From IMG/VR virus record IMGVR_UViG_2603880147_000001: 5,099 nucleotides of DNA; one strand, given 5' to 3'. The first letter of the stretch is position 1. Every line of letters begins with the position of its first letter. A program made the translations under genes and the position numbers. The notes under the pieces were generated by a model. That model had not been told where the DNA came from and made no database searches. It saw nothing but the letters and a program-made list of their open reading frames with translations. Of this stretch, positions 597-5,099 are shown piece by piece. The DNA comes from a virus (lineage: Duplodnaviria > Heunggongvirae > Uroviricota > Caudoviricetes).

Positions 597-995
597 TTAT
601 TGCATTCTGGCCAGGCCGCGCTCTGTCATTTCGGCTGCCACACCGGCAGAGACACGAAACGCCGTTCCCGGCAGCACAAATGCCACAGGTTCATCCCGCG
701 TGGCGTGAAGTGCATCAGTATGCAGCTTCACCAGTGCCACGACCGTGACCAGTTCAGACGTATCCAGAATCACGGTATCCGGCTGCGCTGATCCCACCTC
801 ATTTTCATGTCCGGTCAGCGCATTTTCCCGGCTGAGAGGGGTGTCCTGACCGGCAGTTTCATCCGTGTCATCAAGCTCCTCTTCCAGCTCTGCCACACGG
901 AGCGCCAGTTCTTCTTTCGTCCCCGTCAGGCTGACATCACGGTTCAGTTGCTCACCCAGCACCTGAAGACGGGCAATCAGTTCATCTTTCGTCAT
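597..995 (-). CDS. FI: Head assembly / DNA packaging accessory protein FI (gpFI), 132 aa
   Basis: ORF 597..1034 contains MTKDELIARLQVLGEQLNRDVSLTGTKEELALRVAELEEELDDTDETAGQ...MTERGLARMQ, matching lambda gpFI. I place the start at ATG 993..995 (cat on plus) because GGAGGAG sits 3-5 nt upstream and the length is then 132 aa as in lambda. The ORF-track extension to ATG 1034 falls inside the E-FI hairpin and adds 13 residues (MALRGHFLSVEES) that are not part of gpFI as I recall it. Confidence 0.93.
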   Translation of the reverse strand: MTKDELIARLQVLGEQLNRDVSLTGTKEELALRVAELEEELDDTDETAGQDTPLSRENALTGHENEVGSAQPDTVILDTSELVTVVALVKLHTDALHATRDEPVAFVLPGTAFRVSAGVAAEMTERGLARMQ

Positions 996-1005
996 GGACT
1001 CCTCC

Positions 1006-1034
1006 ACAGAGAGAAAATGGCCCCGAAGGGCCAT
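1006..1034 (-). terminator. Stable stem-loop in the E-FI spacer (7-bp stem, UUCG tetraloop) followed by a U-rich tract; terminator-like or mRNA-stabilising, function uncertain
   Basis: Plus 1017..1023 (atggccc) pairs perfectly with 1028..1034 (gggccat); loop 1024..1027 is cgaa, i.e. UUCG on the minus-strand RNA. It begins 2 nt after the E stop and is followed on the RNA by UUUUCUCUCU, then the FI SD GGAGGAG. Confidence 0.45.
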
Positions 1035-1036
1035 GA

Positions 1037-2062
1037 TTACGCCAGTTGAACGGACACGAACTCATCAGGATCAGCCAGCAGCATCAGCGGTGCTGACTGA
1101 ATCATGGTGAACTCTCGCGCCGGATCGCCGGATGTCTTCCAGTTTTTCGGATAACGGGGAGACGCATTAATACCCTCACTCAATGCATCCGCATCCTGAA
1201 TACAGCCATAGGTGCGCAGACCGCGTGCATGAGTGTTACCCAGCACCATCGTGTTGTCCGGCAGGAAGTTCTTTTTGACGCCGTTTTCCACGTACTGTCC
1301 GGAATACACGACGATGGCCACATCGCCATACATCCCCTTATAGGACACCGCTTTACCCAGGTCTTTCACCGCTGTCTCCAGCTCGGAATGAGAGCCGCGA
1401 CGGGTATCCAGCTTCTCCCTGACGGCTTTGAAGGAACGGAACAGCGCCCAGCCTTTCGGATCGAACACGATGATATTCACCACACCGCTGGCGTTCAGCG
1501 CGTAGGCTTCGATATCGTCGGTCGGGTCATACGTGGACTTGTCACGCTTGCTCCACTCCGTGCCGCCGGACTGCGTGATGTTATTCTCCTCACTGCGGCC
1601 CATATCCACCTCAACCGGATCGAAGGCTTCACCGGTCATGGTGTATTTGCCCTTAAGCACGGCAGAAACTGCCTGCATCTCTTCGACCTGGGCAATGGCC
1701 AGCTCCTCGTCACGCATGTTCTGCATAATGATGCGACGGCGGCGGTAAGCCGGGTCCGTCAGATTCTGCGGATCTTCATCCGGCAGGCGACGCAGGGTCA
1801 TCTGCGGATTCACCTCATGCTTGGGTTTGACATATCCCGGCGTAAATTCAGAGGTGGAACCGCCACGGGAGCGGATAACCTCACCGGAAACAATCGGCGA
1901 AACGTACAGCGCCATGTTTACCAGCCCCGGAATTTGTGAGAGATAGACTTTCTCCGTAGTGAAGGGATAGCTCTCACGGAAAAAGAGACGCAGAAACAGC
2001 GGATCAAACTTAAATTTCTGCTCATTTGCCGCCAGCAGCTGGGCGGTTGTGTACATCGACAT
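1037..2062 (-). CDS. E: Major capsid protein E (gpE), 341 aa
   Basis: ORF 1037..2089 contains MSMYTTAQLLAANEQKFKFDPLFLRLFFRESYPFTTEKVYLSQIPGLVNMALYVSPIVSGEVIRSRGG...ADPDEFVSVQLA, matching lambda gpE end to end. True start is ATG at 2060..2062; the track's upstream start at 2089 is a GTG inside the D-E hairpin. Length 1026 nt including TAA at 1037..1039. Confidence 0.96.
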   Translation of the reverse strand: MSMYTTAQLLAANEQKFKFDPLFLRLFFRESYPFTTEKVYLSQIPGLVNMALYVSPIVSGEVIRSRGGSTSEFTPGYVKPKHEVNPQMTLRRLPDEDPQNLTDPAYRRRRIIMQNMRDEELAIAQVEEMQAVSAVLKGKYTMTGEAFDPVEVDMGRSEENNITQSGGTEWSKRDKSTYDPTDDIEAYALNASGVVNIIVFDPKGWALFRSFKAVREKLDTRRGSHSELETAVKDLGKAVSYKGMYGDVAIVVYSGQYVENGVKKNFLPDNTMVLGNTHARGLRTYGCIQDADALSEGINASPRYPKNWKTSGDPAREFTMIQSAPLMLLADPDEFVSVQLA

Positions 2063-2075
2063 AAAAAAATCCCGT

Positions 2076-2097
2076 AAAAAAAGCCGCACAGGCGGCC
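2076..2097 (-). terminator. Terminator-like hairpin in the D-E spacer (GCCGC-CUGU-GCGGC stem-loop followed by U7); function uncertain
   Basis: Minus-strand RNA after the D stop reads ...CUAAAGGCCGCCUGUGCGGCUUUUUUUACGGGAUUUUUUUAUG(E). A 5-bp GC stem (6 with a flanking G-U pair; plus 2083..2096) is followed directly by seven U (plus 2076..2082). This is intrinsic-terminator architecture sitting between two highly expressed genes. Confidence 0.45.
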
Positions 2098-2117
2098 TTT
2101 AGTGATGAAGGGTAAAG

Positions 2118-3065: not shown

Positions 3066-3779
3066 CCGGGACTGCAGTGTTTCCCGGACGTCATCCGGAA
3101 GATGGCTGTAGGGGTTGCCATCCACCTTATGGCTGCCGCTGTAAATCAGCGTGATTTCCACGCCCTGTTTCTCCAGCGCAGCGCCGTAATTACTGTGAGC
3201 CATCATGACGCCGATGGAGCCTGTCCGGGCGGTCTGCGTGACCAGACGCCGGGAGGAGGCACTGGCAAGCAGCTGACCTGCGCTGCAGTTCATGTCATTG
3301 GCCAGCGCCCATACCGGCTTTATGTCACGCACACGGGCGATGATGTCAGCACAGTCAAATGCTCCCGCCACCATCCCGCCTGGCGTGTCCATATCCAGCA
3401 GAATGCCGTCCACCATCGGGTCGCTGGCAGCCTGTTGCAGACGGGCGATAATGCCGTTGTAACCGGTCATTCCCGAATACGGCTGCAGCGCCCGCGTCCG
3501 GCTGACCAGCGTACCGGACACCGGCAGCACGGCGATGCCGTTCATGACCTGATAACTGCGGGCCTGTCGTGGCCCGTCATCATTACCGGATAACGCCAGC
3601 GTCTCGGGTGCCTCTCCGGCAGTCAGGCTGTCACCGGATACTGCATCCGTCAGGCGGCTGATCCCAAGCTGGCCTGCAAGCGCACAAAAGAAAACCCGCG
3701 CGTAGGCGGGTTCAAGCATCAGCGGCTCATTAAAAGCCATACTGGCAATATGCGGGAGATTACGCAGCTCTGCTGTCAC
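2460..3779 (-). CDS. C: Capsid assembly/maturation protease C (gpC), S49-family (SppA/ClpP-like) serine peptidase, 439 aa
   Basis: ORF 2460..3893 contains VTAELRNLPHIASMAFNEPLMLEPAYARVFFCALAGQLG...DMDTPGGMVAGAFDCADIIARV...MNCSAGQLL...NDLLNTPV, matching lambda gpC. Start assigned to GTG (plus 3777..3779 = cac), with GGAGGAG (plus 3784..3790) 4 nt upstream. The track's TTG at 3893 adds 38 Arg/Pro-rich residues with no lambda counterpart. The start overlaps the end of B by 20 nt. TAA stop at 2460..2462. Confidence 0.92.
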   Translation of the reverse strand: MTAELRNLPHIASMAFNEPLMLEPAYARVFFCALAGQLGISRLTDAVSGDSLTAGEAPETLALSGNDDGPRQARSYQVMNGIAVLPVSGTLVSRTRALQPYSGMTGYNGIIARLQQAASDPMVDGILLDMDTPGGMVAGAFDCADIIARVRDIKPVWALANDMNCSAGQLLASASSRRLVTQTARTGSIGVMMAHSNYGAALEKQGVEITLIYSGSHKVDGNPYSHLPDDVRETLQSRMDATRRMFAQKVSAYTGLSVQAVLDTEAAVYSGQEAIDAGLADELVNSTDAITVMRDALDARKSRLSGGRMTKETQSTTVSATASQADVTGVVQATEGENASAAQPDVNAQITAAVAAENSRIMGILNCEEAHGREEQARVLAETPGMTVETARRILAAAPQSAQARSDTALDRLMQGAPAPLAAGNPASDAVNDLLNTPV

Positions 3780-5099
3780 TCTTCTCCTCCTCTGTTGATT
3801 GTCGCAGCCCGGATTCAAATGCCGCTGCCGCCCAGGCGGGCGGTTTAAGACCGGCTTCGCGGCGCTCCATCGTTTCACGGACCTGCTGGGCAAAAATTTC
3901 CTGATAGTCGTCGCCGCGTTTTGCGCACTCTTTCTCGTAGGTGCTCAGTCCGGCTTCTATCAGCATCACCGCTTCCTGTACTTCTTTCAGACCATCGATA
4001 GCCATACGACCGGAGCCTATCCAGTCACAGTTCCCCCAGGCGCTGCGGGCTTCCTGAAAGCTGAAGCGCGCTTTTGAAGGTAACGTCACCACGCGGCGAA
4101 CGATGGCCTCTTCCAGCCAGCACAGAAACATCTGGCTCGCCTGACGGGATGCGACGAATTTTCGCCGCCCCATAAAGTGCGCCCACGACTCGTTCGCGCT
4201 GGCCCGTGCCGTGGAGTAGCTCATCTGGGCGTAATTCCGGGAAAGCTGCTCATACGAGACACCCAGCCCGGCAGCGATATACCGCAACAGTGACTGCTCA
4301 AACACGGAGTAGCCGTTATCCGTGTCCTGAGCCGTCTGCAGGTTCAGTGAGTCCCCCGGCATCAGGTGCGGCACTTTTGCGCCTCCCAGACGGACCGGTG
4401 CTGCGGCGTAATACGCGGCAATTTCACCAATCCAGCCCGTCAGCCTTTCCCGCTGCTCCTGACTGTTCGCGCCCAGAATAAAATCCATCGCTGACTGCGT
4501 ATCCAGCTCACTTTCAATGGTGGCGGCATACATCGCCTTCACAATGGCGCTCTGCAGCTGCGTGTTCTGCAGCGTGTCGAGCATCTTCATCTGCTCCATT
4601 ACGCTGTAAAACACATTTGCACCGCGGGTCTGCCCGTCCTCCACGGGTTCAAAAACGTGAATGAACGAGGCGCGCCCGCCGGGTAATTCACGGGGTATCC
4701 ATGTCCATTTCTGCGGCATCCAGCCAGGATAGCCGTCCTCGCTGACGTAATATCCCAGCGCCGCACCGCTGTCATTAATCTGCACACCGGCACGGCAGTT
4801 CCGGCTGTCGCCGGTATTGTTCGGGTTGCTGATACGCTTCGGACTGACCATCCGGAACTGTGTCCGGAACAGTCGCGACGGGCTGGTATCCCAGGTGGCC
4901 TGAACGAACAGTTCACCGTTAAAGGCATGCATGGCCACACCTTCCCGAATCATCATGGTGAACGTGCGTTTTCGCTCAACGTCAATGCAGCAACAGTCGT
5001 CCTCGGCAAACTCTTTCCATGCCGCTTCAACCTCGCGGGAAAAGGCACGGGCTTCTTCCTCCCCGATGCCCAGATAGCGCCAGCTTGGGCGATGACTGA
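3760..5099 (-). CDS. B: Portal protein B (gpB), C-terminal ~446 codons; N-terminus lies beyond the window end
   Basis: ORF 3760..4956 (MMIREGVAMHAFNGELFVQATWDT...EEEKSDSRAA) matches lambda gpB. The same frame stays open upstream to the window edge: minus-strand translation of 5097..4957 gives SHRPSWRYLGIGEEEARAFSREVEAAWKEFAEDDCCCIDVERKRTFT, which precedes MMIREG in lambda gpB. The ATG at 4956 is therefore internal. TAA stop at 3760..3762. Confidence 0.94.
   Translation of the reverse strand, partial: SHRPSWRYLGIGEEEARAFSREVEAAWKEFAEDDCCCIDVERKRTFTMMIREGVAMHAFNGELFVQATWDTSPSRLFRTQFRMVSPKRISNPNNTGDSRNCRAGVQINDSGAALGYYVSEDGYPGWMPQKWTWIPRELPGGRASFIHVFEPVEDGQTRGANVFYSVMEQMKMLDTLQNTQLQSAIVKAMYAATIESELDTQSAMDFILGANSQEQRERLTGWIGEIAAYYAAAPVRLGGAKVPHLMPGDSLNLQTAQDTDNGYSVFEQSLLRYIAAGLGVSYEQLSRNYAQMSYSTARASANESWAHFMGRRKFVASRQASQMFLCWLEEAIVRRVVTLPSKARFSFQEARSAWGNCDWIGSGRMAIDGLKEVQEAVMLIEAGLSTYEKECAKRGDDYQEIFAQQVRETMERREAGLKPPAWAAAAFESGLRQSTEEEKSDSRAA

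Follow-up and report, generated by a model that had tools for sequence, protein, structure and literature searches.

A short RNA hairpin located immediately downstream of the major capsid gene E in a lambda-like coliphage is, as judged by sequence comparison, a real structure that selection has kept in all the relatives examined, and this conservation marks it as functional. Its fold on the sense strand, the selection acting on its structure and its position clear of the Shine–Dalgarno (SD) sequence of the following gene, FI, come directly from the data. Building on them, we infer, at a probability of roughly 40%, that the E–FI hairpin is an intrinsic-terminator-type hairpin which is read through by Q-loaded RNA polymerase (Q-RNAP) and would then serve as a barrier to 3′ decay of the E segment of the late mRNA.

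The E–FI hairpin and its gene context

The window analysed here, that is, the whole stretch of 5099 nt, is a minus-strand head-morphogenesis block of a lambda-like coliphage. Lambda 3098-8196 matches it over its entire length at 97.2% identity (lambda position = 8197 - w, where w is the window coordinate), while phages 2G7b and PhiR42_1 are 97.7% identical to it. The genes that it carries, B (partial), C/Nu3, D (2450-2118), E, FI and FII, all lie on the minus strand. According to the ORF list, gene E, which encodes the 341-aa major capsid protein and shares 97% DNA identity with lambda, occupies positions 1037..2062 and ends with the UAA stop codon at 1039-1037 (lambda E is annotated at 6135-7160). 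Gene FI, encoding the DNA-packaging chaperone, spans 597..995, with its AUG at 995-993, and lies within an open reading frame of 597..1034 that has MTKDELIARL at codon 14 (lambda Fi is annotated at 7202-7600). The lambda annotation and the ORF list thus agree with the identities that the original prediction had assigned to E and FI. Among the head proteins, none is as abundant as D and E.

On the minus strand, the junction between the two genes reads GCG-UAA-UC-AUGGCCC-UUCG-GGGCCAU-UUUCUCUCUG-U-GGAGG-AGUCC-AUG. The hairpin (1017..1034, minus strand), delimited by sequence, fold, a scan for terminator-like elements and pairing across 29 distinct spacers, consists of the 5′ arm AUGGCCC (1034-1028), the loop UUCG (1027-1024) and the 3′ arm GGGCCAU (1023-1017), which together form a sense-strand stem of 7 bp (five G-C and two A-U pairs) with a 4-nt loop. 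The UUCG loop is closed by a C-G pair, and the corresponding CUUCGG (1028-1023, minus strand) is the sole sense-strand copy in the window. The stem is followed by the pyrimidine-rich tail UUUCUCUCUG, a weak U-tract (1007..1016, minus strand; its lambda counterpart is UGUUUCUCUG), and by the FI SD sequence GGAGG (1001..1005, minus strand), located 11 nt past the stem and 5 nt ahead of the AUG, where a phage 434 record also annotates the ribosome-binding site.

The original prediction of a perfect 7-bp stem with a UUCG loop, placed 2 nt past the E stop codon, is borne out by the sequence in every respect, as is the description of a 41-nt spacer holding little besides the hairpin and the FI SD, the other content being the pyrimidine-rich tail. 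The UUUUCUCUCU said to come after the stem does follow the hairpin, but its first U is the last base of the stem, which leaves only three uninterrupted U. RNA folding, which had been proposed as a check, predicts a stable structure: with RNAfold, the hairpin segment reaches -12.9 kcal/mol, accounts for 80% of the ensemble and has z = -3.2 against its own shuffles. The hairpin also survives in a 121-nt context fold and appears in every minimum free energy (MFE) fold of the relatives.

It is the location and conservation of the hairpin, not its energy, that exceed chance. Sense-strand 31-nt sliding windows have a mean of -6.4 +/- 3.0 kcal/mol, which puts the hairpin ~2 SD lower, and energies of -14 to -17 kcal/mol are reached at more than 10 separate coding sites; to call the hairpin very stable, as was done initially, is therefore an overstatement. 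The window has 3 perfect stems of 7 bp or longer with 3-8-nt loops, compared to 2.4 +/- 1.9 in dinucleotide shuffles, and CTTCGG occurs once per strand against ~1.2 expected. The terminator-like scan detects the E–FI hairpin, with a window total of 7 against 4.5 +/- 2.3, that is, with no enrichment. A reading of the hairpin as a thermodynamic outlier was rejected in view of its distance of ~2 SD from the mean, the better coding folds and the chance frequency of both 7-bp stems and CTTCGG. The chance of finding such a hairpin inside the 41-nt spacer is, by comparison, ~2.4 x 41/5099 = 0.02. A search of Rfam returned no family, and the sole overlapping match (PhotoRC-I) stayed at 14.2 bits (E = 4.7), below its gathering score of 45.

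Conservation of the stem and variability of its surroundings

For the comparative analysis, relatives of the E C-terminus were collected as loci from GTDB genomes, IMG/VR and annotated phages, and the sequence 3′ of the capsid stop codon was extracted. The hairpin is present in all 44 distinct E–FI spacers of these relatives, and in 43 of them it beats 95% of its own shuffles (worst case 0.07). The lambda/N15/phi80 group, with E proteins 82-100% identical, contributed 29 distinct spacers that were aligned in register. They share the same inner five pairs (GGCCC/GGGCC) without exception and covary at the outer two (AU 13, GU 10 and GC 4; UA 21, CG 4 and UG 1), with standard pairs in 97.5% of the pair cells, as opposed to 32-57% when the 3′ partner is slid by 1-3 columns. 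Cells changed on both sides number 8, compared to 1.7 in shuffles, none of which reaches 8 (0/500). All 10 inner stem positions are invariant, whereas this holds for only 16% of the third-codon positions in the last 50 E codons of the same sequences, and the spacer columns flanking the stem are variable; the stem is therefore under purifying selection. Moreover, 11 sequences carry G.U pairs, which are possible on the sense strand only, and the structure hence belongs to the sense RNA strand. A DNA-level palindrome or an antisense RNA was rejected on the basis of these pairs and of the antisense side having no T-run.

Selection at this site extends beyond a single stem sequence. In distant E-family modules (a second subfamily with E 56-79% identical), this position is taken by no fewer than seven unrelated stems, namely GCGGGGGC-GAAAU-GCCCCCGU, GAGCGGGAGC-UAAAU-GCUCCCGUUU, AAAGGCCUG-AUU-CAGGCCUUU, GGCCC-GUAA-GGGCC plus U6, GAGGGCGGGA-UAU-UCCCGCCUUU, GCACCACGGUC-UGUAAU-GGCCGUGGUGC and UUCAGGGC-UUCG-GCCCUGAA.

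Two side observations concern the collected loci themselves. The spacer of L048 (Erwinia endophytica) starts with CCCCUGGCGUAAUCCGUUCAACUGG, which resembles a scrambled copy of the final E codons and the stop codon, before the hairpin begins, a junction that suggests a past rearrangement. Short, low-coverage contigs at least 96% identical to lambda E occur in dozens of non-enteric assemblies (Kitasatospora, Bradyrhizobium, Neobacillus, Chromatium, an Akkermansia MAG and others); these contigs almost certainly represent contamination of sequencing libraries with lambda DNA.

The special UUCG loop, on which the original prediction had laid stress, turns out to be dispensable in nature. It caps the stem in 18 of the 29 distinct spacers, and the remaining 11 use UUAG, UUCU, UUCA, AUUC, UGUC, UGUU, UCCG, UGCG or UUUC, the single-base variants UUAG, UUCU and UUCA occurring in near-identical lambda-like phages. 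Going by this distribution, UUCG is a preferred but dispensable stem cap.

The sequence past the stem is equally variable. The window tail UUUCUCUCU contains 6 U in 9 positions, three of them contiguous (four with the stem U), and its U-run AUUUUCUCU is better than that of lambda (AUUGUUUCU; the lambda tail is UGUUUCUCU). Among relatives, the first 8 nt past the stem contain 1 to 7 U, with at least 5 in 23 of the 37, and the U-tract ranges from absent (N15-type spacers, L051 and L058) to U8, with canonical U6-U8 runs in L061, L177 and L004. The terminator d-score, an approximation of that of d'Aubenton-Carafa computed with modern energies, amounts to +7.6 in the window, -3.5 in lambda, ~ -12 in N15 and +40 in L061, the relatives spanning -36 to +40; the clear terminator after lom, used for comparison, reaches an approximate +31.6.

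The distances to the neighbouring signals vary as well: the hairpin begins 1-22 nt past the stop codon and ends 2-13 nt ahead of the SD, and in none of the spacers does the hairpin overlap the FI SD. Predicted SD pairing is 0.62, compared to 0.57 in shuffles of the non-hairpin, non-SD segments, and is significant in 1 of 35 spacers. On these values, we rejected occlusion of the SD, or an anti-SD clamp formed by the pre-hairpin UCC or the CU-rich tail that takes part in some MFE folds; the brake on FI translation considered in the original prediction is, as far as it relies on such occlusion, likewise unsupported.

The 5′ arm of the hairpin contains an AUG (1032-1034, minus strand), 2 nt past the E stop codon, which lies in the FI frame, and this frame is open (ORF 597..1034). 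The AUG is in frame with FI in the window, lambda and N15. In the GenBank record of phi80 (L003, 906), the FI homologue starts at the equivalent GUG inside the hairpin, a start that is probably mis-called. An N-terminally extended FI was rejected as the selected function, as the spacer varies from 38 to 57 nt, L047, L118 and L028 are out of frame, and many arms are devoid of a start codon.

Companion hairpins and known counterparts

An equally conserved hairpin upstream of E had been overlooked in the original prediction. The D–E spacer (2063..2117) contains, by sequence and fold, the companion hairpin AAAGGCCGC-CUGU-GCGGCUUUU (2100-2079, minus strand), canonically terminator-like in form, which folds at -14.5 kcal/mol (z = -2.8) and is followed by UUU-ACGGGA-UUUUUUU and then directly by the AUG of gene E, which has no obvious SD. 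This hairpin, with compensatory stem changes and a U6-U8 run, is kept in 28 of the 32 distinct upstream regions. D and E are thus each followed by a conserved hairpin and, on this pattern of conservation, gene E is bracketed by such elements. In lambda, the D–E, E–FI, I–J (15445-15504), J–lom (18904-18964) and lom–orf401 (19586-19649) spacers all have a GC-rich hairpin with a tetraloop and U-rich sequence behind it, so that no sizeable spacer in the late morphogenetic operon lacks such an element.

Gene C itself harbours a further terminator-like hairpin, GAACCCGC-CUACGC-GCGGGUUU with UCUUUUG behind it, at 3692-3713 on the minus strand (lambda 4484-4505). It lies 48 nt past the stop codon of the portal gene B, and its stem is one of only three in the window that are perfect over 7 bp or more. 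Yin et al. reportedly proposed a hypothetical 'Q-dependent terminator' composed of a hairpin, a spacer and a U-tract, and the lambda-type D–E layout of hairpin-U7-ACGGGA-U7 (window 2063-2082, minus strand) resembles it. Such a non-standard terminator was rejected as an account of these hairpins, since the E–FI spacer has no second U-tract and the second U-run of the D–E spacer is A-rich in most relatives.

The closest annotated counterpart is found in N15, where the stem-loop between gene 8 (major capsid) and gene 9 (the FI homologue) is labelled 'putative rho-indep. transcription terminator' (NC_001901). It occupies the homologous position and has the same invariant GGCCC...GGGCC core, a 7-bp stem and a 4-nt loop, and the N15, phi80 and lambda-type spacers align in register. 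It differs in its closing pair (G-C instead of the A-U found here), its loop (AUUC instead of UUCG), its distance from the stop codon (9 nt instead of 2 nt) and its shorter and weaker tail, CUUUCUGG. In the records of lambda and 434 and in the RefSeq lambda-like records the hairpin is unannotated, and text searches of the literature found nothing specific to the lambda E–FI hairpin. In stem, loop and strand it conforms to intrinsic terminators (a G+C-rich stem of ~5-14 bp and a loop of 3-8 nt on the transcribed strand); of the ~7-9-nt U-tract expected right after the stem, the window has 6 U in 9, and the relatives range from none to U8. The E–FI hairpin is an ordinary terminator-like intergenic hairpin of a familiar phage type that was previously unannotated in lambda.

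Elements of similar placement are known from other phages. In the antiterminated, single-promoter late operon of phages L and P22, a rho-independent terminator is predicted right after the procapsid gene module, and the authors of the phage L genome (Casjens and co-authors), while calling its role unknown, suggested partial termination or a block to un-antiterminated transcription (PMC8022706). The likeness lies in a terminator-like element directly following the capsid-assembly genes of an antiterminated late operon; the capsid families are, however, unrelated (P22 gp5 versus lambda E), with no sequence homology, and the P22/L element is known in silico only. T-phi of T7 is similar in being a hairpin that immediately follows the major capsid gene (gene 10), with the same proposed logic of more capsid than downstream mRNA. 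It acts on T7 RNA polymerase without antitermination, whereas the E–FI hairpin is met by Q-modified host RNA polymerase; the T-phi stem is longer and has a proper U-run, and the termination efficiency of T-phi has been measured. C(UUCG)G hairpins, regarded as extra-stable, are said by Tuerk et al. 1988 to be frequent in the intercistronic regions of phage T4; they share with the E–FI hairpin the motif and the intercistronic site in phage late mRNA but differ in that the E–FI loop is not conserved. Finally, the E–FI hairpin resembles known mRNA stabilisers (REP in malE-malF, puf, and cip-cel, PMC10311766) in being a stable stem-loop 3′ of a cistron that is needed in excess within an equimolar unit. 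In those systems, processing sites and half-life effects have been demonstrated, and the structures are usually larger or more stable than the 7-bp E–FI stem with its five G-C pairs.

Possible roles in late transcription and mRNA decay

Late lambdoid transcription is carried out by Q-loaded RNA polymerase, whose nozzle prevents terminator hairpins from forming and which is processive across the operon. Given this nozzle and the weak, variable U-tract, substantial termination at the E–FI hairpin in late growth is unlikely, and the partial terminator of the original prediction is accordingly disfavoured even though the architecture itself is terminator-like. The hairpin is a universal feature located after the gene needed in the greatest amount, and a post-transcriptional role is therefore favoured. 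In late growth, Q-RNAP would pass the hairpin, as the Q nozzle would block terminator hairpins at the exit channel, and the hairpin would form in its wake within the completed polycistronic mRNA. Following an endonucleolytic cut further downstream, possibly in the U/C-rich tail, it would stall 3′-to-5′ exonucleases, and the segment ending in E would outlive the segment with FI and the tail genes, making a modest addition to the large translational advantage of E. Polymerase without Q, present through read-through or spurious initiation in a lysogen or in early infection, would be stopped there to an extent set by the local U-tract.

A barrier to 3′ exonucleases, which had been among the roles predicted for the hairpin, is plausible. 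Such barriers are stem-loops at the 3′ end of the more needed cistron, which is where this hairpin universally lies after E-family capsid genes. In the cip-cel operon, intergenic stem-loops were shown experimentally to set subunit stoichiometry through selective RNA processing and stabilisation (PMC10311766). As regards strength, stem-loops with five G/C pairs are, according to literature cited in PMC2811032 (Spickler & Mackie), not effective PNPase barriers in vitro, and a 7-bp terminator with four G/C pairs was degraded in vivo (PMC2811032). The E–FI stem, with five G-C pairs, would be a borderline case at the lower edge of PNPase-blocking strength. Three further points count against a barrier, namely that most relatives keep a U-rich tail, which would be superfluous for pure protection from decay, that the lambda I–J and J–lom hairpins do not follow abundant proteins, and that every ribosome terminating at the E stop codon has to open the 5′ arm, which lies 2 nt from it. 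In addition, Sampson et al. 1988 (PNAS 85:5439) reportedly found, from classical hybridisation data, that late mRNA is near-equimolar and that translation initiation, not the amount of mRNA, sets relative lambda late-gene expression, a conclusion that would limit any effect of the hairpin to a modest size.

A more elaborate version, which we consider improbable, holds that the hairpin-bracketed E cassette gives rise to a long-lived capsid mRNA, that the 3′ hairpin is a ribosome-gated terminator, or both. Guided by the D–E and E–FI hairpins, the 22-kb late transcript may be selectively processed to yield a discrete mRNA, with the 5′ stem-loop protecting against RNase E and the 3′ stem-loop against exonucleases. 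As the hairpin starts only 2 nt past the stop codon, it may also stop only those transcripts that are untranslated or uncoupled and made without Q.

Among the readings that do without a decay barrier, an insulating intrinsic terminator is possible, though rather unlikely. It would act against polymerase without Q, originating from read-through of tR′ or from spurious starts in the prophage or in early infection, and would be invisible to Q-RNAP. The terminator-like, sense-strand-specific architecture, the U-rich tails of most relatives with the canonical runs of L061, L177 and L004, and the annotation of the N15 homologue are all in line with this role, which the phage L authors also propose for intra-operon terminators (PMC8022706). 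Moreover, the D–E hairpin keeps its U6-U8 run almost universally at a site where partial termination in late growth would lower E. However, the window and lambda have poor U-tracts (3-4 contiguous U; d-scores of about +8 and -3.5 against +32 after lom), the N15-type, L051 and L058 spacers keep the hairpin with no U-tract at all, stopping after E instead of before the lysis genes brings no obvious benefit, and on translated transcripts a ribosome at the E stop codon, 2 nt upstream, would mask the 5′ arm. The same D–E hairpin argues against a leaky terminator that would stop some Q-modified polymerases in late growth and reduce transcription of FI and the tail genes below that of E, as T-phi does: its much better U-tract sits upstream of E, where stops by Q-RNAP would cut E itself. 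The position right after the product needed most abundantly would fit the logic of T7, there are documented cases of phages balancing gene expression by inefficient terminators (PMC9163698), and the U-run of the window is better than that of lambda. Even so, with the Q nozzle suppressing terminator hairpins across the operon, downstream tail genes that are essential and in some cases (V) needed in high amounts, and the near-equimolar late mRNA mentioned above, we regard a leaky terminator as distinctly unlikely.

We give still less weight to a translational insulator, which would block post-E ribosomes from sliding or scanning to FI or would tune FI initiation. The hairpin does always lie between the stop codon and the SD in a spacer that holds little else; nevertheless, the SD is never part of it, predicted SD pairing resembles that of shuffled controls, and the distance from the stop codon is variable. 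The D–E hairpin, furthermore, precedes the most highly translated gene, and a hairpin before a ribosome-binding site is not inherently inhibitory. Hardly credible is a chance palindrome or a neutral relic without function. The chance frequency of perfect 7-bp hairpins (3 against 2.4), the many coding sites that fold more stably and the absence of enrichment in terminator-like matches (7 against 4.5 +/- 2.3) would all be compatible with it, but it is effectively refuted by the comparative data, that is, by the hairpin in all 44 distinct spacers, the compensatory changes, the unrelated stems at the same position and a stem that stays invariant while the neighbouring synonymous sites are 84% variable.

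The stoichiometry of lambda late-gene products is a textbook case in which translation initiation is credited with nearly the whole effect. Hairpins resembling terminators have been noted before within antiterminated late operons, with their roles explicitly called unknown (PMC8022706), and the hairpins after and before the capsid gene described here are under strong structural selection across Enterobacteriaceae prophages. If the E cassette or the ribosome-gated terminator were true, a post-transcriptional layer would be added to lambda late-gene stoichiometry. Should the hairpin have no effect in lytic growth, attention would move to a role in the prophage state. A real but small effect would refine the picture of how lambda sets its protein ratios, and the hairpin would also lend itself as a small natural module for adjusting the stability of mRNA segments in synthetic operons.
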